A stretch of 64,000 nt of DNA from positions 6,144,001-6,208,000 of the forward strand of contig CM000152.2 in NCBI GenBank assembly GCA_000004695.1, read 5' to 3'. Shown in pieces: positions 7,208 through 26,765 of this stretch (position 1 is the stretch's first letter; each line of letters starts with the position of its first letter). The notes below the pieces were generated by a model. The model searched no databases, had not been told where the DNA came from, and saw only the letters and a program-made list of their open reading frames with translations. Source of the DNA: Dictyostelium discoideum. Its lineage: Eukaryota. A program made the position numbers and the translations under genes.

Positions 7208-8251
7208 TTAATAACAAATAATAATAAAAAATATAAAAACAGTAATAATTTTAACAATTTGACCTTTGAATAAAAATGATAATGAAGAAGAAGAAGAAGA
7301 AGAAGAAGAAGTTGATGATTCACTATTTATTTCAGATAATGGTGAGCAAATTGAATTTTTTGAATTGGAATTTGCTGCTTTCTCTAATGAAAGTGAAAAA
7401 TCAGCATTGAAAATTAGACTTGATTGATAAAAAGGAACCGAAATACCAATATATGATTCCACATTATTTGCTTTGGAATTAAAATCAGTAGGATATAAAC
7501 TATTTACTATTGTTGGATAGTTTTCACCATCAGCCAAACAATTTATTGGGAATCTACCTAAAAGAGTATTGTTTGAAACTTGAAGTCTAACATATCTAGA
7601 ATCATCTGGTTCTATTGTATAACCAAATTCTTTACTTGAGCAAATAGGATTATTGGTTTCATTTAATTGGACTTGAACTTTAAATATAATTTGTAAAACA
7701 TTTAAATGGCCTCCAAAAGCAAATGGAGAGAGATTAACTGAATATTTTATTTTTGAAAATTCTTGATCTTCAATTAATTCTTGTATTACATTAACTGTTG
7801 TTGTTACACCACCTTTTTCAATTGTTGTTTGATAATTTAAAATTTTATATATTGAACTACCTGATATTCTCTGAATATTAAGATTATAACTAGTCACTGT
7901 TTCACCATAAACATCAAGTTCTCTGATTTCAGTTAATAAAATAACATATGGCGTTGTTGTTGGTGTTGGTGTTGTTGTTGGTGTTGGTGTTGGTGTTGGT
8001 GTTGGTGTTGGTGTTGGTGTTGGTGTTGGTATAATTATAACTATTGAAGTACAATCAATGCCTGTATAAGGTGTATAACAAATACAACCAATATTTTCTT
8101 TACAATAACCTTGTTCTGGTCCACCACATATTGGATTACCTCGACAATTTTGAAGTGAATTGGTTGGAGTTGTTGTTGGTGTTGGTCCTTGACCTCTAAT
8201 TAAAATAAAACAAAAGAAAAAAATAAAAAGGGTGGATAATCTGTAAAACAT
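7208..8251 (-). CDS. Compact single-exon secreted/type I membrane protein of about 348 aa. Order: signal peptide, Thr/Pro linker, one EGF-like Cys module, (PT)n linker, a roughly 200-aa juxtamembrane domain, TM helix, very short tail. It corresponds to the stand-alone C-terminal module of the large family.
   Basis: The likely start is the internal Met 'MFYRLSTLFIFFFCFILIRG', since the upstream part of the listed ORF is poly-K/F junk. It contains 'CRGNPICGGPEQGYCKENIGCICYTPYTGIDCTS', (PT)n, then 'EIRELD...VTSY...', and ends in a hydrophobic helix. This is homologous to 8994..10040 and to the C-terminal 330 aa of 16620..19145. Confidence 0.6.
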   Translation of the reverse strand: MFYRLSTLFIFFFCFILIRGQGPTPTTTPTNSLQNCRGNPICGGPEQGYCKENIGCICYTPYTGIDCTSIVIIIPTPTPTPTPTPTPTPTPTTTPTPTTTPYVILLTEIRELDVYGETVTSYNLNIQRISGSSIYKILNYQTTIEKGGVTTTVNVIQELIEDQEFSKIKYSVNLSPFAFGGHLNVLQIIFKVQVQLNETNNPICSSKEFGYTIEPDDSRYVRLQVSNNTLLGRFPINCLADGENYPTIVNSLYPTDFNSKANNVESYIGISVPFYQSSLIFNADFSLSLEKAANSNSKNSICSPLSEINSESSTSSSSSSSSSLSFLFKGQIVKIITVFIFFIIICY

Positions 8252-8557
8252 TTTTTTTTTTTTAACATAAAAAATAAAAATAAAAAAAAAAAAAAATTGA
8301 AAAACAAAAGTATTGAATAAAAAAAAGAAGTTTTCTTTTTGTTTTTTTTTTTGAATTTTTTTTTTTAGAATTTGCATTTTTTTCTAAGGGGAGCTTCATA
8401 GAAAATAAAAAATTAAAAGTAAAAAAAAAAAGAGGCGACAACCCACCAGCACTGCATAAAATTACTTTTCTCCACTTAAATGCTGAAATTATTACACCAA
8501 ACACCTTAATTTTTTCACAAAGAAGATATTTTAGAATTTGAAAGAATATTTAGATAT

Positions 8558-8993: not shown

Positions 8994-10040
8994 TTAACAA
9001 ATAATTATTAAAAATATAAAAACAGTAATAATTTTAACAAATTGACCTTTGAATAAAAATGATGATAATGAAGAAGAAGAAGAAGAAGAAGTTAATGACG
9101 ATTCACTATTTTCAGATAATGATGAGGATGGAGATGAACTAGATTGTGATTCTTCAGATGGTGAGCAAACTGAATTTGGTGAATTAGAATTTGCTGCTTT
9201 CCCTAGTGAAAATGAAAAATCAGAATCAAAAATTATCCATGATTGATAATTAGGAATTGAAATACCAATATGTGATTCCACATTATTGGCTTTGGATTTC
9301 AAATCGCCAGAATCTAAACTAATTGATGATGTTGATATGATTTTAGCATCAGCGAAACAACTATTTGGGAATCTACTTAAAAGAGTACTATTTGCAACTT
9401 GAAGTCTAACATAGCTAGAATCATCTGGTTGTGTTGTAAAAGCATATTCTTTACTCGAGCAAATAGTCGTATTACTAGTTTCATTTAATTGAACTTGTAC
9501 TTTAAATATAATTTGTAAAACATTTAAAGCACTTTGAAAAGCATATTGTGAGAGATTAACTGAATATTTTATTTTTGTTAATTCTTGATCTTCAAGTAAT
9601 TCTTTTGTTACATTAACTCTTGTTGTTACACCACCTTGTAGAATTGTTGTTTGATAATATGATATATTGTTTAAATTTCCTATTATTCCCCAATTAGTAA
9701 GAATATGACTAGTCACTGTTTTACCATCAAAATCAAGTTCTCTGATTTCAGTTATTAAAATAACATATTCACTATTACTATCATCATCGATTTCAGTGTT
9801 TGGTGCCTCTTGTGATGATATTGGTGTTGGTATAATTATAACTTTTGAAGTACAATCTAAACCTACATAAGGTGAATAACAAACACAACTATTTTCGAAA
9901 CAATAACCTTGTTCTGGTCCACCACATATTGGATTACCTTGACAATTTTGAAGTGAATCAGTTGGCGTTGTTGTTGGTGTTGCTTTAATTAAAACAAAAT
10001 AAAAGAAAAAAATAAAAAGGAAGGATAATCTGGAAACCAT
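8994..10040 (-). CDS. Second compact EGF-like/TM family member (348 aa, single exon). Order: signal peptide, 'CQGNPICGGPEQGYCFENSCVCYSPYVGLDCTS', acidic insert, juxtamembrane domain, TM.
   Basis: Full ORF with an N-terminal signal peptide (MVSRLSFLFIFFFYFVLIKA), a C-terminal hydrophobic anchor, and block-wise identity to 7208..8251 (…QTTI..GGVTT.VNV..EL.EDQE..KIKYSVNLS..AF…). Confidence 0.65.
   Translation of the reverse strand: MVSRLSFLFIFFFYFVLIKATPTTTPTDSLQNCQGNPICGGPEQGYCFENSCVCYSPYVGLDCTSKVIIIPTPISSQEAPNTEIDDDSNSEYVILITEIRELDFDGKTVTSHILTNWGIIGNLNNISYYQTTILQGGVTTRVNVTKELLEDQELTKIKYSVNLSQYAFQSALNVLQIIFKVQVQLNETSNTTICSSKEYAFTTQPDDSSYVRLQVANSTLLSRFPNSCFADAKIISTSSISLDSGDLKSKANNVESHIGISIPNYQSWIIFDSDFSFSLGKAANSNSPNSVCSPSEESQSSSSPSSSLSENSESSLTSSSSSSSLSSFLFKGQFVKIITVFIFLIIIC
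9049..9246 (+). other. Antisense low-complexity ORF (poly-Glu/Asp), not a gene.
   Basis: It lies wholly inside the Ser-rich region of the minus-strand CDS 8994..10040, and its composition is the complement of (TCT/TCA)n. Confidence 0.7.
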
Positions 10041-11211: not shown

Positions 11212-11891
11212 TTAACAAGATATTTTTGAGATCTTGTTACAATCCCAAATTGCAAAGCTGAAAACTGAGTTTAAAATACTATCTTGATTAAATAGATTAT
11301 AAAAATCACTATCTTGAAATGTTTTTGGATCGATTAATGTAAAACCAATTGGTAAATTCAGGTATTTATCTATATTATTAAAATTAAAATATATTATATT
11401 ATCAACTATTAGATCTGTAATATCTACATCATTAAACATAAAAGAAATATCTTTTTAATCTTTTAAATTATCAACACCTATAGATTATTTAATTTTTTTT
11501 AATTATTTAATTAGTTGGTAAATTATATTAAAATTTTCAATTTTTTTGATTTAACTTACTTTTTAATTGTATTGATGATAAAATTACTTGAATATTATGT
11601 GAATAAATGGAGCCTTCTCGATTTGGACTATAAAGTGAAAATGCATCTAAATGATTAAAAAAACCATCTGGTTATTTGTTGAACCATATTTAACGGCATC
11701 GTATAATATTTCAAAAACACCATTTTTAATATTACCAGGAACCAATGACTCTACATGAAATTCCAAAACATTATTATCAATAATTTATACCATATGTATC
11801 TAATATTATAAATCTAATAAAATAATAGAAATTACTTAAATATATGGTTTCATATGATTTTAAGATTGGTATAGTAGCGTCATTGACTATA
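11212..11891 (-). pseudogene. Fragment of a family member (start of exon 5 'MFNDVDITDLIVDNIIYFNFNNID...', intron 4 and the 3' part of exon 4), interrupted at 11891 by a TIR element. A 60-bp tail of the same exon resumes at 14087..14150.
   Basis: The 75-aa ORF 11212..11439 is about 75% identical to the start of 16620..19145. 11440..11885 aligns to the copy 1 intron 4/exon 4 sequence (19184..19620) with indels. Homology stops abruptly at the element boundary and at about 11235. Confidence 0.55.
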
Positions 11892-12397
11892 TGTCCCATG
11901 CCAAAATTACCATATTAATTTCAGCAGCCATATTAATTTTGGCATGGGACTTAGGTCTGCCAAAATTACCTTATTAATTTCAGCAGCCATATTAATTTCA
12001 GCATGTACATAGCTGCCAAAATTAATATGGTAATTTTGGCATAGAAAAAAAAAAAGTCAAAGTCATTTAATTAATAATCATCTCAAATATAAACAAAATT
12101 TTAGTACTAAAATTAATATTATTATTATTTTTATTTTAATAATTATAATAATAAAAAAAAAAAAAAAAAATTTTCATATTATTTTATTTATATCTTTTAT
12201 TTATTTTTATCTTTTTATTTTTATTATTAATTTTATAATTTATTTTCATTTCTTTTTTTTTTAGTTGAAAAAAATTTTTTTATTATTCATTTATTTCTAA
12301 GGCTAACAAAAAAAAAAAATTAAAAATAAAAAAAAAAAATAAAATAAAAAAAAAAAAAAAAAAATTAAAATAATTTTTTTTTTTTAATTTTTTTTTT

Positions 12398-13064
12398 TTA
12401 ATTATCTACTCTTCTACTTACTCTTTTGTTACTAACAGATGAAGTTTCGTTTGAAAATCTTTTGGTGAAAAAATCAGCATCAGATTGTAATTGATTAGCT
12501 CTTTTTTTACCCGTTTTGTTTTTGTTTGATTGAGTTGTGATTCCACCATTATTGGAAGTTGTTGCAGCTTCATGTGTTGATCTAACTTCGGTGGTAGAGT
12601 GCTCGATTGCTTTTCCAACTAGGTCATCTGTTGATTTTCTTTTGGTTATTTCGATATCCCTTTGCAATTTATTTTTACTTGAGAGTTTGGTGGCCTCTAT
12701 TCTAGAAGTAGGCTCAGTATTGTAATAAGCCTTTATAATAGCAGAATGACTATCTGCTTTATAATGATTACTGATGTGCTGTTGACACTGGTTTTGATTA
12801 ATCATATGAGAGACACCATCTTCATCTTTGTTAAGCCTAACCTTCTCTATAATCTTCACTAAGTCTTTTGGGTACCAATTTTTTCTTTTTATCTTTATCA
12901 ATATAAAACACTTCTTTAATAGTTGCCGTACCATATTCTACATTCTCAACAACATACTGTTTATCCAAAATGTTTTTCCAATAGCTTGTATTTTGTCCAC
13001 TCAATTTGGTATTATGAAATTTATAATCTATTTTAAATTTTACATCTTCGTCATATTTTTCCAA
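12398..13064 (-). CDS. ORF(s) carried inside the TIR element. A 75-aa ORF (12837..13064) and a 178-aa ORF (12398..12934) overlap in different frames and are probably one frameshifted or spliced gene. The product is basic and Ser/Thr/Lys-rich, with no recognisable DDE or other transposase motif.
   Basis: Two adjacent minus-strand ORFs with non-repetitive composition (MEKYDEDVKFKIDYKFHNTKL...; ...NWYPKDLVKIIEKVRLNKDEDGVSHMINQNQ...) lie between the inverted repeats. No match to any transposase family I can recognise by eye. Confidence 0.3.
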
Positions 13065-13354
13065 GAGTTTTTTTAATTTATTTTTATTATTTTTTCAATT
13101 TCTGTTGCAGAAAGTTGATTATTTAATTTATTGTCTTTACTGAAGACCATTTTTTGGAACGAAAACTTTAAAAAAATAAAAAAATAAAAAAAAAAATACT
13201 TTTTTTTTTTAATTTTTTTTTTTATATTTTTTTTTTTATATTTTTTTTTTTTAAATTTTTTTTTTTAATTTTTTTTTTTTATTTTATTTTTTTAAAGTTT
13301 CGAACAATTATATATAAAAAAAAAGTAAAAGATATCCCTTCGGTTAATTAAATA

Positions 13355-13362
13355 ATAGTAAT

Positions 13363-13406
<44 letters not shown>

Positions 13407-13408
13407 TA

Positions 13409-13500
<92 letters not shown>
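13355..13500. repeat. (AAT)n microsatellite of about 145 bp inside the TIR element.
   Basis: Direct reading: aataataataat… with one interruption. Confidence 0.9.
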
Positions 13501-13505
<5 letters not shown>

Positions 13506-14371
13506 CTTAAATATACAAAAAAAAAATAAAAAAATAAAAAAATAAAAAAAATAAAAAAAAAAAAATAGAATGAAATGAAATAAAATAAAATAAAAAAAAG
13601 AAATACAGAATTTCTTTAAAGAAACTTATTTCGAAATTGTTTAAACAATCATACAGTTTAAAATTAAATAAATTGTTTTAAACCACCACTTTTTTTGAAC
13701 ACATGAAAATAAATAAGAAATAAAAATAAAAAGATAAAAAAAGATTTTTTTTTTTTTTTTTATTTTATAATTATTCTTGTCGTCAGTATTGTTACTATAA
13801 TTAATCCCATGAGTTTTTTTTTATTATTATTTTTAATTCTTTTATATTTGAGATGATTATTATTAATTAAATGACTTTGAGTTTTTTTTTTTATTTTTCT
13901 ATGCCCAAAATTACCATATTAATTTCAGCAGCCATATTAATTTCAGCCTAAAATAGTTGGTCTGTGCATGCCAAAATTAATATGGCTGCTGAAATTAATA
14001 TGGTAATTCTAGCAGACATAAGTCCCATGCCAAAATTACCATATTAATTTCAGCAGCCATATTAATTTTGGCATGGGACAACTATACTCGAAGGTGTCAC
14101 TTGTGACTTTAGATAGAAACATTTGAAAATATAGTAAAAATGGATAAAAAAAAAAGAAAATAAAATAATTAAAAAAAAACCAAATAATAAAAAGTTTCAT
14201 TCAATATATATATATTTTTTTAGTATTTATTTTATTTTAATAAAATATGTTAAAAATTATAATGTTTCAATTTTTAATATATTTATTATTTTTTTTTTAT
14301 TATTTTTTATTTTATTTTTTAATATATTTTGTTGTAGGGAATTTTTTTTGATATTTCGCTTTCTAAACGGC

Positions 14372-14424
14372 AGTGAATTTTTACACTAAAATACACTATT
14401 TATACATAGTGTAAAAATTCACTA
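14372..14424. repeat. Perfect 16-bp inverted repeat (AGTGAATTTTTACACT / AGTGTAAAAATTCACT) around a 21-bp loop. It is an isolated hairpin in AT-rich intergenic DNA.
   Basis: Direct reading of 14372..14387 and 14409..14424. Confidence 0.8.
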
Positions 14425-14733
14425 AAAATTTTTTTTTTTTTTTATAAATTAAAAACAATTTATTTAATCAAAATAATAAAAAAACTAATTTTGAACAATT
14501 ATTTGTTGTTTAAGAATTAAATAACAATTTAAATTGTTAGATTTGAGCCAATTTTTTTTATTTTTTTTATTTTTTTATTTTTTTTTTAATAATTTATAAA
14601 ATGGCATTGCAAACTTTTATTAAAATTTAATTGTGAGAAATTTTACTATTGTAATTTCACGGGAAAAAAAAACCTAGTAAAATGTTAAAATATAATTAAT
14701 TAAATTAAATTTTAATAAAAGTTTGTAATGCTA

Positions 14734-14925
14734 AATTTGAGAGTCATCTTACTCTCAAATTATTTAAATAATTTAATTTGAGAGTCATCTTACTCTCAAA
14801 TTATTTAAATAAATTTTTTATTTTTTTATTTTTTTTTTAATAATTTTTAAATAAATTGTTATTTAATTTTTATTAATTTATTTAAATAATTTGAGAGTCA
14901 TCTTACTCTCAAATTATTTAAAATA
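14734..14925. repeat. Three copies (two tandem, one 75 bp further on) of a 38-bp unit 'AATTTGAGAGTCATCTTACTCTCAAATTATTTAAATAA'. Each unit contains its own 9-bp inverted repeat (TTTGAGAGT/ACTCTCAAA). The last copy abuts the truncation point of a gene copy.
   Basis: Units are at 14734..14772, 14775..14813 and 14888..14925. The 3' half of the unit (ctcAAATTATTTAAAatacatac) resembles the end of intron 3 in intact copy 1 (ctctAATTATTTAAAatacatac at 20056..20078). Confidence 0.65.
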
Positions 14926-15686
14926 CATACTTGTATAGTTTATAAAAATTGGAATACCTTGATAAGTTGTATCATTTATTTGTTCATAAAGAGAATAATT
15001 TTGTAAACCAGCGTTTAAAACCGAAAGGTAACTAATGTATGTCATATTACCCTATTGATCAAGATATAGGACTTGGTAAAGTTGAAATTATTTGGTCACT
15101 TAAAAAAATCAATGGATTAATTGGTCTTTGTAATGATGATATTGATTTAAGTTTTATAACACTTCCCAAAAATAAATTAGTTTCGCAATGGCCATCATTT
15201 GGGAATTGGATTAATTCTACAATTTCTCCATTCTTATTACTATTTTTATATTATTTTAAATTAATACAAACTATATTAATAAAATGAATTTTTTAAAAAA
15301 AAAAATAAAAAAAAGCTTTTTTTTTTCTGGAATTGTTTAAAAAATCAATTTTATAAAAAATTATAAAAGTAATAAAATCTTATTTGTTATATTATATGGT
15401 ACTGAAATATTGACCAGAATTATTAAAAGATATTTCCCAATTAGAGTTTGATAATCTTGGAATATAAAAATTTTCATAATATCGAATTCTATAATAATTT
15501 TTACCAAGTGATACTAAATCAAATGAATAATAACTATCAATAGTATTAATTCTAGTTGAATCTAAAAAACCATTTAGTTTAACAATTGATGAAAATTTAT
15601 TAACTATACTCCATGTTACTTGTATTATTTCAATATTAAAATAGTAATAATAATAATGGTAATAAACAATTGTATTAGTTGTTTTG

Positions 15687-15729
<43 letters not shown>

Positions 15730-16092
15730 AAGAGATTTATAATTACTTTTACATTCATAATTAAATAAAAATGAACCTTTTGAATATCATTGTTTACAAA
15801 AAAGGTTGTTGAATAGTTTGAAAAATTAAGAACATAAAAAAGTTGATGAAGTTATATTTACTTCTATAAAAAAACAAGACATATTGTCACCATCTAATGT
15901 TTGTATAGAATCTGTAGTTTCATTTATTTTTTGAACTAAAAATAAAAGATTGTATGCCGGACAATATGCATTTGGTGTTAATTCTGGATAAAATATATTT
16001 ATTCTATCTAAATAAGTTATTGAATAATTTAGTCCTTTTATTAATAAAATAAATGATTATATTAAAAGGTTGATAATTCCAAGTTTAACCAT
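14922..16092 (-). pseudogene. Truncated 5' half (exons 1-3) of a family member. It begins with ATG (MVKLGIINLLI) but has an in-frame TAA in the signal peptide. Its 3' end is replaced by the palindromic tandem repeats.
   Basis: 14922..15290, 15380..15640 and 15740..16092 align to copy 1 exons 3, 2 and 1 (20079..20414, 20493..20768, 20895..21274) with introns in the same places. 'ATGGTTAAACTTGGAATTATCAACCTTTTAATATAA' contains a stop. No exon 4/5 homology lies downstream. Confidence 0.55.
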
Positions 16093-16372
16093 TTTAAAAG
16101 TAGAATTGTTTAATGTTTTTTTTGTTTTAAATTCGACCCGAGAGGAATTTTAAAATTTGTGAAAAAAATTTTTGGGGAAAAAAAAAAAAAAAATTTAATC
16201 GTAAATCCAAATGCTCAAATTTTTAAATTCCATCAAGCCAAACTTCGAACAAAAAAAAAATAGGATTTTTTTTTCTAAAAATAAAGATATTTTTTGGGCG
16301 TGAAATAGATAATTAAGTCTAATAGTCATTTTTTTTTTTTATTAATAATAAAAATTTTTTAATTGAATTTTT

Positions 16373-16619: not shown

Positions 16620-19183
16620 TCAATAAGTCTTCTTTGATTTTTTGAAGATTTTATAAATAATGATTCTAATATGAATTGATTTTGAGAAGAGAATTATTCC
16701 AACAATTATAACTAAAACTATGAAAAATACAATAGAACCAACAATAATACCAGCTAGTTGACTTTTGGTTAAAGATGATCCGGATGATGAGCAAATTGAA
16801 TTTGGGGAATTAGAATTTACAGCTTGATTATCTAATAAAAGTGAAAAATCAGGATCTATAATTACAGAGGTTTCATATTGACCAACCACAATACCAATAT
16901 ATGATTGTACATTATTTTCATTTGATATTGAATTTAATTTTGAATCTAATAATTCATTTGCGATTGTTACTGTTTCACCATCAACAATACCACGTTTTAA
17001 GAATCTACCATAAATACTATTACTTGAAACTTGAAGTTTAATATAATTTGAATTATCTAATGTTGTATCACCAAATTCTTTACCTGAACAAATATCTTTT
17101 TCATTTGATTGAATTTGAGCTTCAATTATAACTTGTAAATTATTTAATTTATTTGAGAATTTATATGATGATAATTCTACTGTATATTTAATTGTTGATG
17201 GATTCATTATTAATTCTTGATTTGCAAATGTAATATTACTTTTTTTTTCAAACCATTCTAATGTTACATTAATTGTTGTTGTTATGTTATTATTTATAAT
17301 TGTTGATTGATAATTTGATATTGTTGATGAAATACTATTATAATACCATTTATCAATATAATGAATTTTAACTTGTTCACCATTGATTGAGTTAACTTCT
17401 CTAATTGCTATAATTGATATGTTACTTGTAACTTGGTAATTATTATTAACATTACTAGAATTATTATTTTTATTATCAATAATTGTAGTTGGTTTATCTT
17501 CATTTGGTTTTGGTTGTGGTATAATTATAACTTTAGAGCTACAATCTAAGCCAACATAAGGAGAAAAACAAATACAACCAACATTTTCTTTACAATAACC
17601 TTTTTCTGAACCGCCACATACTGGATTACCTAAACAAATTTGAGGTTTATTAGTTGGTGTTGGTGTTGGAGAAATGGTACTTGTTGGTGTTGGAGTTGGT
17701 GCTGAATAATTGAAATAATAAACTTTTGGGAAAATAGTAAAAGTGTTTGATAGAATAGTTGGTTGCTGAATATTGGTTAAATGTACATTGATTGAATCGT
17801 TTGTTGGTTTAATATTTTTAATTAAAATTACAGAATCACTCGGTACTGTCATTGCTGAAGAATAAGATTCACCATTACTTGATAATATCACAACTTTATT
17901 GGTTGATTTAAAACCTCTACCATATAACCAAAGATCACCACCATCATTATCTATAGCAGATGAGTCAGTAATGATTGGTTGAGTTACTGAAAACTCTTTT
18001 GTTTCTACAAACCAAGTAAAACCTGAATCTTTTAAATCACTTGCGCTATAACCTCTATATGATCCACCTCTATTAATAAATCCATAAACTGAAATTAAAA
18101 ATCCATATGGATGTGAAAATCCAATTGGTACTTCCATTGTGCATGTGTATTCAATATCTGTTCTATTCTTTGTAACAATGGTTGAAATACATTCATGAAT
18201 TCTTGAATTCATATCTGTTATATATACTATTGGATATTGATCATCTTTTAAACCGTCTAAATCCTGTGCATCAAAATCAAATACTATTAATCTATCTAAT
18301 GACCCAACATCAATAGATGATCTTGATACCCAAAATCTTTTTAACTCTGGTAGTGGTGAATCAATTTGATTACACATATTTAATGTTGAAACTTGTAATA
18401 TTGACATATCATTAAGATAATTAATAAATGGATTCGCACTTGAGTCAAGGCTAATTTGCCCATCCAATTCAATATTTGTAAGACGTTTATAATATTTATT
18501 TACATTACCAAATGTATCAATGAAAACTGCATAATAAATTTCATAATTTTGAGGTACACAATCATTTAAAATATATGGTATACTTATTATATAATTTCCT
18601 TTCCATTTATCACCACTACCAACTACCATATCACTTAATTCCAATGTATAATTATATAATGAACTATCAATCGAACCTCTAATAGTAACATATCCATCTT
18701 TGAAACCATTAATTTCATCTTCAATTGTAAATAACCATCCTAATGTTGTGTCTGGATATTTAACTATACTTGTAACTATTGGACCATAACTATCGAATTT
18801 TGTATTATCAATTCTTAATTGGTATTCATCAGATAATTGAGTATTAAGTATATAATTCTCTTTATTAAATATTAACATCCAATCTAAAACACCTGGTGAT
18901 GTATTTGCTGGTATTTTAAATTTAATATAAAATCTTGAATTTATTTCATCCCAAATTGCAAAACTGTAAACTGAGTTTAAAATACTAACTTGATTATATT
19001 CATTAATAAAATCACTATCTTGTAGTGTTCTTGGGTCAGTTAATGTAAAACCAATTGGTAAATTCTTATAATTATCTATATTATTAAAACTAAAATATAT
19101 TATATTATCAACTATTTGATCTGTAATATCAACATCATTAAACATAAAAGAAATATCTTTTATATCTTTTAAATGGTCAACAC
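16620..19183 (-). CDS. Exon 5 (about 855 aa) of family copy 1, a large type I membrane glycoprotein. It has a roughly 550-aa ectodomain including an IPT/TIG-like segment ('PIITDSSAIDNDGGDLWLYGRGFKSTNKVVILS'), (TP)n linkers, the EGF-like module 'CLGNPVCGGSEKGYCKENVGCICFSPYVGLDCSS', a juxtamembrane domain, a TM helix and a basic tail 'KIFKKSKKTY'.
   Basis: An 841-aa ORF is preceded in frame by a CTATAG acceptor at about 19184. Domain calls come from cysteine spacing and hydropathy read from the translation. Paralogues elsewhere in the window conserve the same blocks. Confidence 0.7.
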
Positions 19184-19265
19184 CTATAGATTATTTAATT
19201 TTTTTTAATTATTTAATTAGTTGGTAAATTATATTAAAATTTTCAATTTTTTCAATTTAACTTAC

Positions 19266-20833
19266 TTTTTAATTGTATTGAAGGGAAAATTACTTGAATA
19301 GTATGTGATAAAATGGAGTAGTCTCGATTTGGACTATAAACTGAAGATGAGTCTAAGTGATTATAAAAACTTATTGAATTTTTTGTTGAACCATATTTAA
19401 CGGCATCGTATAATATTTCAAAAACACCATTTTTAATATCACCAGAAATCAATGAGTCTACATGAAATTCCAAAACATTATTATCAATAATAGTTTGAAA
19501 ATAATTTAAACCATATGTATCTGATATCATAAATCTAATTAAATAATTAAAATTATTTAAATATATGGTTTCATATGATTTTAAGATTGGTTTAGTTGTG
19601 TCATTGACAAAACTTGAAGGTGTCACTCGCAACTCTGGGCCATTTCCAGAAAGAAAGGTCATATGCAAGTAAAAATAATTTTTATTTGAAAAACCACGAG
19701 TTGGTAAAGACATTTTTATTTTGTAGTTTAAATTGTTTCCACTTGAAAATCCAAATGGAAATACTTGATATTTATTATCACCAAATATACCATCCCCATA
19801 GGAATACTTTAAGTATTGAGAATCATACTTGAATCCAATGTCACTATAAGACAATTCAAATGAATATAATGACATTGAACTAGTACTATTATCAACAGTT
19901 GTATTTATTATTGAAGATATTAAACCTTGATCAATTTGGCCTTTTCCAAAAAATTAAAAAAATTAAAAAAACAAGAAAATAAAAAAAAACATGAATTAGA
20001 ATTGTGTTTTAATTTTAATTAATAATAACAATAATAAAAATAATAATAATTTGCACTCTAATTATTTAAAATACATACTTGTATAGTTTATAAAAATTGG
20101 AATACCTTGATAAGCTGTGTTATTTATTTGTTCATAAAGAGAATAATTTTGTAAACCATCGTTTACAACCGAAAGGTAACTAATGTATGTCATATTACCT
20201 ATTGATCCAGAAATAGGTCTTGGTAAAGTTGAATACACCGAGTTAATTAAAACCAATGGATTAATTGGTCTTTGTAATGATGATACTGAATTAAATTTTA
20301 TAACACTTCCAAACAATAACATAATTTCACAATTGCGGCCATTTGGAAATTGGATTAATTCTACAATTTCTTCATTCTTATTACTATTTTTATATTCTTT
20401 TAAATTAATACAAACTATATTAATAAAATGAATTTTTAAAAAAAAAAAAAAAAAAAAATTAATTTTAAAAAATAATAATAATAAAATCTTACTTGTTATA
20501 TTATATGGTACTGAAATTGTTATTATTGTACCAGAATTACTAAAAGATATTTCCCAATTAGAGTTTGATAATCTTGGAATATAAAATTTTTCATAATATC
20601 GAATTCTATAATAATTTTTACCAAGTGATGTTAAATCAAATGAATAATAACTATCAATAGTAGTAATTATAGTTGAATCTAATAAACCATTTAGTTTAAC
20701 AATTGATGAAAATTTATTAACTATACTCCATGTTACTTCTTGTATTATTTCAATATTAATTTCATATCCTTATTATATTAATATTAAAATAGTAATAGTA
20801 ATAATAATAAATTGTATTAGTTATATATTTTGG

Positions 20834-20893
<60 letters not shown>

Positions 20894-21274
20894 CAGATTT
20901 GAGATTTATAATTCCTTTTACATTCATAATAAAATAAAAGGGAACTTTTTGAAATATCATTGTTAACATTAAAGGTTGTTGAATATTTGAAAAAATTAAG
21001 AGTTGCATATTCTGAGCAAAAAAAAGTTGATGAAGTTATATTCCTTCTATAAATAAACAAAACTGATTGTCACTACCTAATGTTTGTATAGAATCTGCAG
21101 TTTCATTTATTTTTGAACAAAGAATAAACGTTGGTATGAAGAACAATATGGATGTAATGTTTGTTCTGGATAGAATATATATATTTTATCTAGATAAGTA
21201 ATTGAATAATCTTGTCCTTTTATTAATAAAATAAATGTTAATAAAAAAAGCCTGATTATTCCAAGTTTAGCCAT
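19266..21274 (-). CDS. Upstream exons 1-4 of the same gene. Exon 4 is 19266..19940, exon 3 is 20079..20414, exon 2 is 20493..20768 and exon 1 is about 20895..21274 with the signal peptide MAKLGIIRLFLL… Exons 2-4 are open and phase-consistent. Exon 1 shows 1-nt and 4-nt indels relative to the paralogues, which create stops.
   Basis: Donors are GTAAGT (19265), GTATGT (20078) and GTAAGA (20492). Acceptors are AG at 19941, 20415 and 20769. Exon lengths satisfy phase (675, 336, 276). Exon 1 reads '...SSYQRLFFVQK*' because of a 1-nt shorter poly-A run than copy 3. A second 1-nt loss and a +4 insertion follow. Confidence 0.45.
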
Positions 21275-21774
21275 TCTAAAAGAAGAATTGTTTGATGGTT
21301 TTTTTTTATTATTTTCAGTTTGAACAAAAAAAATATGGTGAAAAATAAAAAATATTATAAAAAAAAAAAAAGTTTTTTGTAAAAACCAAATAAAAAAATA
21401 ATTTTTTTTTTTTATTTTTTTTTGTAAAAATAAGATATTTATAAAAGGGGCATTTGATCAAAAAAAAAAAAAAAAATCATACACAAAATTTTTTGAGATA
21501 TTTATTTTTATAAAAAATATCTCAAAAAAAAAAAAAGTTAACAGTAATATTTTTTATTTGTTTATTTTTAATGTTTTTGGTAATAAAAATTAATAAAAAC
21601 ATTTAAAATTATATTATATTTATTAAATAAAAAAAAAAAAAAAAAAAATAACTATTTCTTAATGTTTTGAACAAAAATTTTTTTTTTTTTTTTATTTAAT
21701 ATATATAATATAATTTTAATTTTAATGTTTTTATTAATTTTTATTACCAAAGAAGTCTCCTAAGGAAATTGCTG

Positions 21775-21809
<35 letters not shown>

Positions 21810-21918
21810 AACAGAAATATTTAATAAAGAATTTAATTTAAAGAATAAAAAAATGTTTAGAAAAAAAAAAAGAATTTTTGTTGGTCTGTAAAGGATTTAT
21901 TTTTTTATTTCTTTTTTA

Positions 21919-24900
21919 TCAATAAGACTTTTTTGATTTTTTGAAGATTTTATAAATAATGATTCTAATACGCACTGATTTTGAGAAGAGAATTATTCCA
22001 ACAATTATAACTAAAACAATGAAAAATACAATAGAACCGACAATAATACCAGCTAGTTGACTTTTGGTTAAAGATGATTCGGATGATGAGCAAATTGAAT
22101 TTGGAGAATTAGAATTTACAGCTTGATTATCTAATAAAAGTGAAAAATCAGGATCTATAGTTACAGAGGTTTCATATTGACCAACCACAATACCAATATA
22201 TGATTGTACATTATTTTCATTTGATATTGAATTTAATTTTGAATCTAATAATTCATTGGTGACTGCCACTGTTTTACCATCAACAATACCACGTTTTAAG
22301 AATCTACCATAAATACTATTACTTGAAACTTGAAGTTTAATATAATTTGAATTATCTAATGTTGTATCACCAAATTCTTTACCTGAACAAATATCATTTG
22401 TCAATATAATGAATTTTAACTTGTTCACCATTGATTGAATTTACTTCTCTAATTGCTATAATTGATATATTACTTTTAATTTGATAATTATTAACATTAC
22501 TAGAATTACTATTGCTATTATCAATAGCTGTAGTTGGTTTATCTTCATTTGGTTTTGGTTGTGGTATAGTAATAACTTTAGAGCTACAATCTAAGCCAAC
22601 ATAAGGAGAATAACAAATACAACCAACATTTTCTTTACAATAACCTTGTTTTGAACCACTACATACTGGATTACCTAAACAAATTTGAGGTTTATTAGTT
22701 GGTGTTGGTGTTTAAGTTGGAGTTGAAGTTTGAGTTTGAGTGGGTGTTGGTGTTGGAGTTGGAGTTGGTACCGAGTAATTAAAATAATAAACTTTTGGGA
22801 AAATAGTAAAAGTATTTGATAGAATAGTTGGTTGCAGTGTGAAAATCCAATTGGTACTTCCATTGTGCATGTGTATTCAATATCTGTTCTATTCTTTGTA
22901 ACAATGGTTGATATACATTCATGAATTCTTGAATTCATATCTGTTATATAAACTATTGGATATTGGTCATCTTTTAAACCGTCTAAATCATGTGCATCAA
23001 AATCAAACGTTATTAATCTATCTAATGACCCAACATCAATAGATGATCTTGATACCCAAAATCTTTTTAACTCTGGTAGTGGTGAATCAATTTGATTACA
23101 CATATTTAATGTTGAAACTTGTAATATTGACATATCATTAAGATAATTAATAAATGGATTCGCACTTGAGTCCTTGTAATTTGGTGGATTTAAATCAAAA
23201 TTTGTTTGACGTTTATAATATTTATTTCTATTACCAAATGAATCAATGAGAACTGCATAATAAATTTCGTAATTTTGAAATACAAAATCGTTTAAAATAT
23301 ATGGTATACTTATTATATAATCTCCTTTCCATTTATCACCGCTACCAACTACCATATCACTTAATTCCAATGTATAATTATATAATGAACTATCTACTGA
23401 ACCTCTAATAGTAACATATCCATCTTTGAAACCATTAATTTCATCTTCAATTGTAAATAACCATCCTAGTGTTGTTGTCAAGCTATGATCTTGATATTTA
23501 ACTATAATTGTAACTATTGGACCATAACTATCGAATTTTGTATTATCAATTCTTAATTGGTATTCATCAGGTAATTGAGTATTAAGAAAATGATTCTCTT
23601 TATTAAATACCAACATCCAATCTAAAACACCTGGTGATGTATTTGCTGGTATTTTAAATTTAATATAAAATCTTGAATTGATTTCATCCCAAATTGCAAA
23701 GCTGTAAACTGAATTTAAAGTATTAAATACTTCAAAGTTAATTCCATTATAGAAGTCACTATCTTGTAATGTTCTTGGATCGATTAATGTAAAACGAATT
23801 GGTAAATTCTTATAATTATCTATATTATTAAAACTAAAATACATTATATTATCAACTATTTGATCTGTAATATCAACATCATTAAACATAAAAGAAATAT
23901 CTTTTACATCTTTTAAATAATTAACATCTACATATTATTATTTATTAAGAATAAAGTAATAATAAATTATAGTTAATAGTTTTATTCATAAATATCGTCA
24001 TTTTTTTTTTTTTTTTTTTTTTACTTACTTTGTTCTATAGTTGGTAAATTAATTCTTAAATTTGGAGTTTCAATAGAGAAAGGTTGATTTTGGTTAAATA
24101 ACGATGACTTATCTAAATGATTATAAAAATAATATGAATTACTTGTTGAACCATATTTAATGACATCATAAAATATTTCGAAAACACCATTTTTAATATC
24201 ACCAAAAACCAATGACTCTACATAAAATTTAATTATTTTATTATCAATATTGACTTGAATAAAATTCAAACCATATGTATCTGATATTGTAAATCTAATT
24301 AAATAATTAAAATTATTTAAATAAATAGTATCAAATTCATTTAAAGTTGGTATGAAATTATTATTATTATTATTATTGATTAAATTTGAATGTGAAACTT
24401 GTAATGCCAAACCATTACTACCACCATAATCTGTCATTTGCAAAATAAAATATTGTTGACTTGAAAAACCACGATTTGGAACAGACATTTTCATAGTGTA
24501 GTTTAAATTATTTCCACTTGAAAATCCAAATGGAAATACTTTGTATTCATTCTCAGATTCTCTATTACCTCCTCCTCCTCCACTAAAATAGGTATACCAT
24601 TGAGAATCATATGTGAAATTAAAATCACTATACATTAATTCTAATGTATAAAATGGCATTGAACTATTACTATAATCAACACTTGTATACTTTATTAACT
24701 GTTTTAAAGAATAAGAATTTAAAACTTTTTATAACATTGGTTAGACCGATAATGATAAAAATAATGATAATATTAAAAAATACATACTTGTATAGTTTGT
24801 TGGAATTTGAATAGTTTGTAATGTTGAATCATCTTTTTGTTTATAAAGGGTATAATATTGTAAATAACTATATAAAACTGAAAGGTAATCAATGTAAGTG

Positions 24901-25105
24901 ATATTACCAATTGATCCAGATATTGGTCTTGGTAAAGATGATATTAAGATGTTGTTATTTAAAACTAATGGATTAACTGGTCTTTGTAATGATGATGTTG
25001 ATTTAAATTTTATAACACTTCCAAAAATATTTAAAACTTTACAAGTTCCATCTTTTGGAAATTGAACTAATTCATTAATCTCTTCACTATTTTTAAATTC
25101 TATAG

Positions 25106-25169
<64 letters not shown>

Positions 25170-25963
25170 ATTTTAAAAAATGAATACTAAATATTAATTA
25201 AAATTAATAATAATAATAATAATAATAAATTCTTACTTACTTGTTATATTATATGGTGTTGAAATTGTAATATTTGTACCAGAATTGTTAAAAGATATAT
25301 CCCATTTAGTTTTTAATAATCTTGAAATAAAATAACCTTCATAATATAGAATTCTATAATAATTTTTACCAAGTGATATTAATTCAAATAATTCTCCATC
25401 ATCACCATTATCAAGTAAATTAATAATAGTTGAATCTAATAAACCATTTAAATTTACAATTGATGAATATTTATGTACTATACTCCATGTTACTTCTTGA
25501 ATTATTTCAATGTTAATGCTAAATTCTAAAAAAAAGATTAGTGACATATATATATATAAATTATAAAATAATGAATGGTATTATAATTATAATTACTTTT
25601 ACATTCATAATTAAAAGTGAACCTTTTGAAATATCATTGTTTACAAAAAAAGAAATACTTGAGTTTGTTGAAAAATTGATATTTTGATTTTCAAAGCATA
25701 AGAAAATTGATGATGTTGAATTTCCAACTATTAATGAACAAACTTGATTATCAATACCACTTAATTTAGTAATTGGATTTGCAGTAACACTTGTTTTTTT
25801 AACTAAAATATAATATTGAGGTATTTCACATTATTTATTTGATGTTTTGGTTGGATAGAATGTATTTGTGTTATCCAAAAAACTTAAGATGTAATCTTGA
25901 CCTTTTACTAATAAAATAAATAATAATAATAAAAAAAGAATTAAAATTCTGAGTTTAGCTATC
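21919..25963 (-). pseudogene. Tandem paralogue (copy 2) of the 16620..21274 gene, now decaying. The start codon is mutated (ATA), exon 1 has an in-frame TAA, and exon 5 has a roughly 250-bp and a roughly 330-bp deletion plus a TAA (22710..22720).
   Basis: ORFs 21919..22431, 22675..23889, 24021..24659 and 25233..25547 are each over 85% identical to segments of copy 1 but are in different frames. 22431..22445 jumps from the copy 1 equivalent of about 17095 to about 17350. 22830..22850 jumps from about 17765 to about 18110. 'ATAGCTAAACTCAGAATTTTA' aligns to 'ATGGCTAAACTTGGAATAATC'. Confidence 0.65.
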
Positions 25964-26765
25964 TAAAGATTAGCTATTATTATTATTATTATTGTTTTTT
26001 TTTTTTTTTTCATTTTTTTTTTCATTTTTTGACCACGAACCAAAGGATATTTTTTTTTTTTTTTTTTTGGTGGTTTCGTGATTACTTTTTTTTTTTTTTT
26101 TATTTTTTTTTTTTTAATTTTATTATTATTATTGATAAAAAAATAAAAGCTTTTTATTTATATTTTTTAAAAAAAAATTAAAAAATTAAAAAAAGTTAAA
26201 TAAAAAAAAAAAAAAAAAAAGAAACTTTACTCAATTTTGATATTTGATTTTTGTGTATGTCAATATTATTTAGTTTTTTCATTTTATGAAATTTGGCATT
26301 TGATAATCAAATTAAGTTGACATTTTTTTTTTTTTTTAATTTTTTTTTCCAAAGTCAGAACAAAACAAAAAAAAAAAAAAAATTGAAAAAAAAAAAAAAA
26401 TTGAAAAAAAAAAAATTAAAAAAAAAAAAAATTAAAAAAAAAAAAAAATAAATTAATTTTAAACAAATTATTTAATAAAAAATTAATATCAATCAATTAA
26501 TTTGTTTCTTTTATCAAAATTATTTTTTTAATTTTTTAAAAAAAATTTTTTTTTTTGTTTTACTCATATTTTTTCATTTTTTTTTTTTTTTTTTTTTCAT
26601 TTATCAAATATCAAATACATACACCCACTCACACTTTTATATCTGCACAAAACGCGTATATATTTTATATATTAAATTTGTTTGTGTATATATATATATA
26701 TATATACATTAAATATATAAATATATAAATATAGTGTATATATATATAAAATTTCGAACGAAAAA

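Follow-up and report, generated by a model that had tools for sequence, protein, structure and literature searches.

The first exon of DDB_G0282707, a member of a tandem cluster of minus-strand genes for ComC-like membrane proteins with an EGF-like domain on chromosome 3 of Dictyostelium discoideum AX4, cannot be read through in the deposited genome. We infer that this damage very probably consists of base-calling errors in the 2005 Sanger reference, as opposed to mutations of the AX4 lineage, because a near-identical strain carries the same exon intact. The gene, hereafter copy B, occupies 21274–16620 (4655 nt) of the 64,000-nt stretch of DNA analysed here, which we call the window. The comparison draws on GCA_054883475.1 (L002, locus tags ACTFIT_), a second D. 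discoideum genome that is probably AX2-214, since it is the sole near-identical match to AX4 among the project's three D. discoideum assemblies; we refer to it below as the AX2-like assembly. The protein annotated for DDB_G0282707 (P0004) is encoded exactly by the window sequence, but it comprises 1117 amino acids from an internal Met and has no signal peptide (UniProt Q54S23). A text search of the literature on DDB_G0282707 found no papers. On the reading that we favour, copy B would be a real five-exon gene for a 1403-amino-acid protein in which DUF7743, DUF7035, DUF7034, an EGF-like domain and a ComC supersandwich domain lie between a signal peptide at the N terminus and a transmembrane segment at the C terminus.

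By homology, exon 1 of copy B spans 21274–20916, intron 1 spans 20915–20769 and exon 2 begins at 20768, in agreement with the exon 1 model of the initial annotation. Exon 1 was projected from the gene models ACTFIR_000932 and ACTFIT_012035 together with alignments; it measures 359 nt in the window and 361 nt in intact versions, and encodes the putative signal peptide together with a segment of the N terminus that contains Cys. Intron 1 is 147 nt long in the window and 123 nt in the AX2-like assembly, and contains a T59 homopolymer (20834–20892, minus strand) that is T35 in the latter. Exon 2 (20768–20493) is intact and has no Met codon, exon 3 (20414–20079) is intact and holds the annotated AX4 start, an internal ATG at 20193, and exon 4 (19940–19266), also intact, encodes DUF7743. 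The equally intact exon 5 (19183–16620) encodes DUF7035, DUF7034, DUF7949 (EGF-like) and ComC_SSD; beyond these domains lie a hydrophobic segment and a short, basic tail. Together, exons 2–5 amount to 3851 nt with zero stops, zero frameshifts and every splice site present. In a spliced transcript, the junction downstream of exon 1 would be expected to read ...GAATGTAAAA/GATATGAAA, with the splice written AAAA/GATATG.

The N terminus MAKLGIIRLFLLTFILLIKG/QDYS is conserved in orthologues and was read by eye as a signal peptide, and the C-terminal hydrophobic segment LAGIIVGSIVFFIVLVIIVGIILF, which precedes the basic tail, was likewise read by eye as a transmembrane segment. Judged by sequence, the proteins of the cluster look like type I membrane proteins. 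An hmmscan search of copy B matched DUF7743, DUF7035, DUF7034, the EGF-like DUF7949 and ComC_SSD, with DUF8390 (PF28405) present only among the precomputed domains. ComC_SSD was found in the exon 5 open reading frame at an E value of 4e-11 and is unlisted for the full-length 1403-amino-acid protein (P0019) at the 0.001 cut-off. The resulting order, DUF7743–DUF7035–DUF7034–(DUF8390)–DUF7949–ComC_SSD, is that of the ComC-like EGF/supersandwich family. Copy B thus resembles ComC and the group-4 Dictyostelium ComC-like EGF-domain proteins, but unlike comC itself it belongs to a distinct paralogous subfamily in a tandem cluster.

Intact full-length orthologues of copy B occur in at least 7 assemblies. 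Every gene model compared (AX2-like, two further D. discoideum, two D. cf. discoideum, D. citrinum and D. dimigraforme) uses exon 1, with its conserved putative signal peptide and four conserved Cys residues. All indels between copy B and its ACTFIR orthologue are multiples of 3. For the gene, dN/dS is 0.51 over the whole length and 0.32 in exon 5. Evolution is much faster in the N-terminal than in the C-terminal half of the protein.

In the window as deposited, the reading frame from the minus-strand ATG at 21274 gives MAKLGIIRLFLLTFILLIKGQDYSITYLDKIYIFYPEQTLHPYCSSYQRLFFVQK and ends at a TAA (21109–21107) produced by an A6 to A5 frameshift. The A run near 21115 has 5 residues in copy B and 6 in copy A and all other paralogues and orthologues. 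A second single-nucleotide loss follows at 21043 (GGAAAT to GGAAT), and the frameshifts sever the signal peptide from the rest of the protein. Both losses had been described in the initial annotation, along with a 4-nt ‘TTTT’ insertion, which proves to be no insertion: the same 4 nt are found in copies A, B and D and in every intact orthologue, and it is copy C that has lost them. Two kinds of change had gone unnoticed, namely a T-insertion/C-deletion pair at 20990–20986 and seven isolated substitutions between 20969 and 20899 (20969, 20965, 20946, 20941, 20931, 20914 and 20899, minus strand, relative to the AX2-like assembly). That at 20914 destroys the exon 1 donor (20915–20914), which is GG in the window and GT in the AX2-like assembly, both ACTFIR genes and copies A and C. 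The indels fall in A6, A3 and T5 runs, and the window states break the conserved motifs NFSNYS, the G of SKGSL, NYECK and the donor GT.

All of this damage is missing from the AX2-like assembly. In its version of copy B, exon 1 is intact, the donor is GT and the open reading frame runs to 1403 amino acids, signal peptide (read by eye) included; at the differing sites it shows A6, GGAAAT, TTTTTCAAACT and the GT donor. The two assemblies are colinear over window positions 6407–31299 (24.6 kb), with 40 differing events, 21 of them substitutions. AX2-214 was sequenced by Nanopore and Illumina, and AX2 and AX4 have been reported to be near-identical in the tgrBC region of chromosome 3 (Holland et al. 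2025, PMC12745789). Within the 4655 nt of gene B, the 12 differing columns are all confined to 217 nt (20899–21115, minus strand) that run from within exon 1 into the beginning of intron 1, for which uniform placement gives P ~2e-15. This cluster adjoins the T59 tract, and the density of differences climbs towards it. The other 4.3 kb of gene B agree exactly: the first 160 nt of exon 1 are identical in both assemblies, the ~4.2 kb from the T tract to the stop codon at 16620 hold zero differences, and residues 122–1403 of the AX2-like protein are identical to those encoded by window exons 2–5. The lesions of copy B are thus absent from a near-identical genome and packed into 217 nt, as opposed to being spread along a gene under relaxed constraint.

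The states found only in the window are singletons relative to all paralogues and orthologues, and at each differing site the AX2-like base agrees with all, or the majority, of copies A and C and the ACTFIR genes. Moreover, the window bases follow a pattern. All seven isolated substitutions take the identity of their 5′ neighbour (chance 0.22–0.27 each, P ~1e-4 to 2e-5), and the same holds for the 3 mismatch columns in the indel pair, which makes 10 of 10 mismatch columns; over the whole 24.6 kb, the AX4 base equals a flanking base at 21 of 21 substitution differences. Carry-over of a neighbouring base and miscounted run lengths are typical of the sequencing method, and the singleton states and 5′-neighbour copying together point to a stretch of poor quality in the 2005 Sanger reference. 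Probably only low-resolution read ends covered the stretch beside the 59-nt poly(T) tract, or, alternatively, slippage after the tract may have produced the errors. The Nanopore-based assembly carries errors of its own, chiefly in homopolymer lengths. At 21115, however, the A run is longer in the AX2-like assembly, opposite to the homopolymer compression seen elsewhere in it, so this difference is unlikely to be a Nanopore artefact. Homopolymer sequencing errors had been one of the initial suggestions, and for copy B sequencing error is the best supported of them, although homopolymers alone do not account for seven substitutions, one of which kills the donor. In its clustered indels and substitutions next to a T59 tract, their absence from an independent assembly and an N-terminally truncated annotation, the locus resembles known base-calling errors beside long homopolymers in reference genomes, from which split or truncated gene models arise.

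Could the lesions nevertheless be real and specific to AX3/AX4, a mutation shower beside the poly(dA:dT) tract having inactivated DDB_G0282707 while AX2 keeps the protein? The lesions are, after all, present in the deposited sequence, and the fully intact exons 2–5 would fit a very recent inactivation. Neighbour-copying substitutions can also arise by polymerase template dislocation. On this view copy B would be a pseudogene of very recent origin, peculiar to the strain, with ~11 neighbour-copying mutations acquired within ~50 years of laboratory culture, and we regard this as unlikely. Homopolymer slippage is frequent in D. discoideum, A6 to A5 slippage being a common type of real mutation in its genome, but the measured base-substitution rate of 2.47e-11 per site per generation (PMC7466956) predicts only ~0.001 substitutions in 217 nt since the AX2/AX4 split, computed at 1e5 generations per lineage. 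The real-lesion reading would have to crowd ~11 events into 217 nt yet leave the adjoining 4.2 kb of the gene untouched, and one-directional neighbour copying with a gradient towards a homopolymer is typical of trace deterioration. The strain history was also considered as a source. AX3 was isolated after nitrosoguanidine mutagenesis, and this mutagen can give clustered mutations, mostly G:C to A:T transitions; the spectrum here, mainly transversions plus indels, does not fit such an origin. If the lesions were real, they would point to error-prone repair or replication at long homopolymers and would mean that the two main laboratory strains differ genetically in a way so far hidden. Three further searches bore on the same point: exact-protein look-ups for independent AX4-lineage sequence (with the 55-amino-acid truncated reading frame, the 841-amino-acid exon 5 reading frame and the annotated protein) gave no match, a metagenome pattern scan tolerating both A5 and A6 gave 0 hits, and a search for remarks by dictyBase on errors in the sequence brought up nothing pertinent. 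Two other origins were rejected. Gene conversion from a decayed paralogue fails, as none of the AX4-specific states occurs in copies A, C or D or in the ACTFIR genes, and neither programmed frameshifting nor RNA editing could rescue two −1 lesions, a lost donor and seven substitutions, none of which the sister strain has.

The opposite arrangement, in which the AX4 reference correctly represents the entire NC4 lineage and exon 1 of the AX2-like assembly was falsely ‘repaired’ during polishing by reads cross-mapped from a paralogue, appears very unlikely. The compressed homopolymers of that assembly lend it some support, and mapping of short reads to the wrong Dictyostelium paralogue has been documented for tgr genes, but the same study found Nanopore assemblies to match Sanger sequencing (bioRxiv 10.1101/2025.10.22.684067). 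The AX2-like exon also retains B-specific states that are absent from A and C (the 14 nt missing from A, TTTATTG and CACTTTT). A donor within the cluster would have had to supply precisely these bases and spare the rest of B, which no paralogue there could do; the assemblies are identical in exons 2–5 and in the opening 160 nt of exon 1.

The initial annotation had also proposed that exon 1 was mis-modelled and that, if the gene is functional, it needs an alternative 5′ exon or start. That copy B works in AX4 without exon 1, from the downstream start (ATG 20193, 1117 amino acids) or an unrecognised 5′ exon, seems to us extremely improbable. The AX4 annotation does start at the internal Met, and exons 2–5 are open. 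The 1117-amino-acid product would, however, place ~1050 residues, extracellular in relatives, before a single transmembrane segment without a signal peptide, and from membrane-protein topology it could not be expected to reach the cell surface. Exon 2 has no Met and in-frame stops lie directly upstream of it, and exon 1 is used by all orthologues. No signal-peptide reading frame was found between 21275 and 21918, and open reading frames of at least 20 amino acids across 20769–21918 included no signal-peptide frame with a usable donor. We therefore reject the proposed mis-modelling; the supposed need for another 5′ exon or start finds no support, and correct base calls would suffice to restore the gene.

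Exon 1 is unreadable in all three large copies in the deposited window (A, B and C), as the initial annotation had observed, and the stops in A and C lie at other positions, as it also stated. Its suggestion that all large copies are pseudogenes holds for A and C, whose main lesions occur in both assemblies, but not for B. In copy A, exon 1 (16092–15747, minus strand) has a TAA at 16059–16057 (codon 12) and has lost 14 nt at 15833 and 1 nt at 15785; it does not differ between the window and the AX2-like assembly. The exon 2 acceptor of copy A is deleted, an insertion of ~3 kb (11900–14900, minus strand) bearing a dispersed-repeat reading frame at 12398–12934 separates exons 3 and 4, and most of exon 5 is missing. 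The TAA, the 14-nt and 1-nt deletions, the 3-kb insertion and the truncated exon 5 are identical in the AX2-like assembly.

Copy C is annotated in AX4 as two genes, DDB_G0282809 and DDB_G0282709. Its exon 1 (DDB_G0282809; 25962–25597, minus strand) has ATA in place of ATG at 25962, a TAA at 25833–25831 and a 4-nt deletion at 25616, and its exon 5 (23925–21919, minus strand) has two internal deletions that remove template residues 913–1027 and 1175–1255, along with frame changes. The ATA start, the 4-nt deletion and the exon 5 deletions are common to both assemblies. Even here, one ‘stop’, the TAA at 25833–25831, is missing from the sister assembly, where it reads TAT. Since the disabling lesions recur in both assemblies, copies A and C are, judged from the two genomes, real pseudogenes, true decayed duplicates of the kind expected where a tandem family gains and loses members.

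Apart from copy B, the cluster shows the ordinary gain and loss of copies in a tandem family. It resembles birth-and-death families of Dictyostelium surface proteins such as the tgr genes, which include annotated pseudogenes: duplicates lie in tandem, their number varies from strain to strain, identity is mosaic from copy to copy, and some members (A, C and D) have decayed. It also raises the question posed in the tgr literature, whether AX4 pseudogenes are pseudogenes in other strains. Unlike tgr genes, the cluster encodes proteins without an IPT/TIG domain, and the apparent ‘death’ of copy B would be an artefact of the reference, not a strain polymorphism.

With the damage to copy B read as reference error, the outcome is mainly a correction of annotation. 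The AX4 model would start at an internal Met in exon 3 because of the errors in exon 1, and DDB_G0282707 should be annotated as a 1403-amino-acid protein with a putative signal peptide and, at the C terminus, a putative transmembrane segment. In presenting a truncated, mislocalised protein, the present model would mislead studies of localisation, knock-out design, proteomics and the phylogeny of the ComC-like family. More broadly, apparent pseudogenes of AX4 that lie beside long homopolymers should be compared with newer long-read assemblies before they are given a biological reading.

The window has a G+C content of ~20%. From the ATG at 20193 it encodes, without a mismatch, the AX4 protein DDB_G0282707 (P0004, XP_640216, UniProt Q54S23), which identifies it as chromosome 3 (6,357,299 bp) of D. 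discoideum AX4. The gene belongs to a tandem family on the minus strand, spanning ~3.7 to 26 kb and flanked by ordinary genes, encoding Med13, a PHD-finger protein, a GATA factor, an amylase-like protein, a RhoGEF-PX protein and NF-YA. The family consists of copy C (21919 to ~25962, annotated as DDB_G0282809 and DDB_G0282709), copy B (16620–21274, DDB_G0282707, called copy 1 in the initial annotation), copy A (11212–16092), two short genes with EGF-like and C-terminal parts only (8994–10040 and 7208–8377) and a shortened copy D (3705–6679). By Pfam, the large copies are ComC-like, with matches to DUF7743, DUF7035, DUF7034, the EGF-like DUF7949 and ComC_SSD. ComC, the named relative, combines EGF domains with a signal peptide and a transmembrane segment, and occurs only in group 4 (PMC4931340). 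The short paralogues at 7208–8377 and 8994–10040 have intact ORFs (389 and 348 aa, respectively), each with a hydrophobic signal-peptide-like N terminus, EGF-like DUF7949 and a region that aligns to the large copies' C-terminal part; the entire N-terminal part of the large copies is missing.

A homology search returned full-length homologues of 1359–1421 aa from other D. discoideum assemblies, two D. cf. discoideum, D. citrinum and D. dimigraforme. We rebuilt the five-exon gene ACTFIR_000932 on the DNA of its locus (L001, from another D. discoideum assembly) and projected it onto the window, which places copy B exons 1–5 at 21274–20916, 20768–20493, 20414–20079, 19940–19266 and 19183–16620, all on the minus strand. 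Exons 2–5 retain all splice sites, have no stops and differ from the orthologue only by indels in multiples of three. Aligning exon 1 across the family, as the initial annotation had proposed, showed that the N termini of 13 members align well, sharing a signal-peptide-like start, M-x-K-L-x-I-I-x-L-F-L-L-S-F-I-L-L-I-K-G|QDYS, as well as four conserved Cys, NFSNYS, the G of SKGSL and NYECK(R/G). The projection and these N termini agree with the initial exon model, so that its own suggestion of a mis-modelled or different first exon falls away. An alternative 5′ exon or start is unnecessary, and no candidate first exon was found upstream of copy B exon 1.

As deposited, the copy B frame opened by the ATG at 21274 does end, as first described, at a TAA (21109–21107) after ...YQRLFFVQK. 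DNA alignments of all copies and orthologues also bear out a shortened poly-A run (A6 to A5 at 21115) and a second 1-nt loss (GGAAAT to GGAAT at 21043). The reported 4-nt TTTT insertion is not one: copies A, B and D all have the four bases, as does every intact orthologue, and it is copy C that lost them, at 25616. Past the TAA, coding sense resumes in a second frame (KINETADSIQTLGSDNQFCLFIEG) and then in a third (NITSSTFFCSEY...YYECK). Previously overlooked were a T-insertion/C-deletion pair at 20990–20986 and seven isolated substitutions from 20969 to 20899, one of which changes the exon 1 donor from GT to GG (20915–20914).

The 90% cluster of P0004 also includes a 1403-aa protein, ACTFIT_012035 (P0019), encoded on a 6,429,748-bp chromosome-scale contig of D. 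discoideum assembly GCA_054883475.1. We infer that this assembly represents strain AX2-214: of the three D. discoideum assemblies (ACTFIT, ACTFIR and ACTFIW), it is the sole near-identical match to AX4, and in the flanking Med13 gene the DNA of ACTFIR is only 93% identical to that of the window. Holland et al. (PNAS 2025, PMC12745789) deposited Nanopore plus Illumina assemblies for AX2-214, for two tropical isolates of D. discoideum and for several sister species. In the tgrBC region of chromosome 3 they found AX2 and AX4 to be unrearranged and 99.5% identical, and they report that the translocation that made chromosomes 3 and 6 is unique to the AX4/AX2 lineage. The matching AX2-like locus (L002) is colinear with window positions 6407–31299, including copies C, B and A and the insertion in A, and differs from it by 40 events, 21 of them substitutions. 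Within gene B, every differing column lies in 21115–20899 (P ~2e-15 if placed uniformly over the 4655-nt gene), at a density that climbs toward the intron 1 poly(T) tract (T59 in the window, T35 in L002); over the ~4.2 kb between this tract and the stop codon at 16620 there are zero differences. Residues 122–1403 of P0019 equal the translation of window exons 2–5, and exon 1 of L002 is 361 nt long and open, ending in a GT donor.

Of the two assemblies, the AX2-like one is favoured as correct by several lines of evidence. At each differing gene B position, its base is shared with copies A and C and the two ACTFIR genes, or with most of these; AX4 always stands alone with its base, which breaks conserved residues and the donor. 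All seven isolated substitutions duplicate their sense-strand 5′ neighbour, a pattern that also holds for the indel pair's three mismatch columns (by chance 0.22–0.27 each, P ~1e-4 to 2e-5), and over 24.6 kb the AX4 base matches a flanking base in 21/21 substitution differences, for example at 12269–12273, where L002 has ATATATAT and AX4 has TTTTTTT. Poorly resolved ends of Sanger reads produce one-directional carry-over and miscounted short runs, increasingly so toward a long homopolymer. Nanopore compression cannot explain the intact exon, since the A run at 21115 is longer, not shorter, in the Nanopore-based assembly. Elsewhere in 6407–31299, homopolymers are longer in AX4 in 11 of 12 length differences, by up to 24 nt, and both assemblies seem to carry errors in A/T runs typical of their technologies. 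False repair of exon 1 by cross-mapped polishing is unlikely, because L002 retains B-specific states within the same differing stretch.

AX2 and AX3/AX4 share the parent NC-4, from which they were derived around 1970. At the measured rate of 2.47e-11 base substitutions per site per generation (PMC7466956), and allowing 1e5 generations per lineage, ~0.001 substitutions are expected in these 217 nt, against the 7 to 10 observed, which makes a real cluster of mutations in the AX3/AX4 lineage improbable. The damage to copy B exon 1 most likely arose as an artefact in the reference. The early suggestion of homopolymer errors was thus partly apt: it fits copy B, but isolated substitutions and the GT to GG donor change are involved as well as run lengths.

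The proposal that all large copies are pseudogenes fails for copy B, with exon 1 open in L002, but holds for copies A and C, whose exon 1 stops do lie at different positions and whose main lesions are identical in the window and L002. Copy A has a TAA at codon 12 (16057–16059), a 14-nt and a 1-nt deletion in exon 1, no exon 2 acceptor, most of exon 5 missing and a 3-kb insertion with a dispersed-repeat ORF. Copy C has ATA in place of a start codon, a TAA at 25831–25833, the frameshifting 4-nt deletion at 25616 and two large deletions with frame changes in exon 5. Both are real, ordinary pseudogenes. The copy C TAA (25831–25834 region) reads TAT in the AX2-like assembly and is therefore probably another base-calling error of the reference; copy C remains disabled without it by the lesions common to both assemblies. 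The TAA/TAT contrast amounts to two T-to-A changes 3 nt apart, each duplicating its 5′ neighbour.

The copy A insertion (~3 kb, 11900–14900) sits between exons 3 and 4 and is a dispersed, probably mobile, repeat. Its 178-aa ORF (12398–12934, minus strand) has no Pfam domain; it is 99% identical to DDB_G0271172, from an 8.48-Mb contig, and about half of it matches DDB_G0290953, from a 5.13-Mb contig, at 95% identity. Copy D begins with an exon 1 that is intact yet divergent (ORF 6326–6679, minus strand, 117 aa, ~29% identical to the template), lacks the part corresponding to residues 317–994 of the full-length protein and is 88% identical to the template over its C-terminal 294 aa; it represents either a shortened member of the family or one more copy in decay. 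In part of exon 5 (18112–18411 and 22838–23137), copies B and C share 98% identity, whereas their 5′ exons (20010–21423 and 24749–25934) are 87% and only 71% identical to the same ACTFIR reference, a mosaic that suggests gene conversion between tandem copies. Copy number and order also vary between strains (L001 9057–9319 and 16103–17777 versus window 21919–26000 and 14905–16357): the ACTFIR assembly has only one full-length gene, a 263-nt remnant of copy C and a 350-aa gene model spanning an intact exon 1–3 fragment similar to copy A. Similar to the tgr genes, which gain and lose tandem copies, the ComC-like cluster is a typical family of this behaviour, and the locus holds no new kind of system.

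Gene B is conserved, with a dN/dS against the ACTFIR orthologue of 0.51 overall and 0.32 in exon 5. Comparing AX2-like with ACTFIR (window 16620–21274 versus L001 10001–14778), exons 1–4 (aa 1–549) are near-neutral, with 22 synonymous and 80 non-synonymous changes (omega ~0.9), and exon 2 has 14.5 non-synonymous versus 0.5 synonymous; identity rises from the N to the C terminus in all orthologues. The fast N-terminal half may be under diversifying selection, acting on the protein's outer part, or just be weakly constrained. The correct gene B would encode a 1403-aa ComC-like protein that, judged from its sequence, starts with a signal peptide and has a transmembrane segment at the C terminus. 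The 1117-aa AX4 model would be a by-product of reference errors; lacking a signal peptide, its ~1050 residues that are extracellular in relatives could presumably not be translocated. The copy B exon 1 damage is thus best classed as not a real feature, and the main value of the finding is a correction of the annotation, together with a caution about AX4 ‘pseudogenes’ that adjoin long homopolymers.
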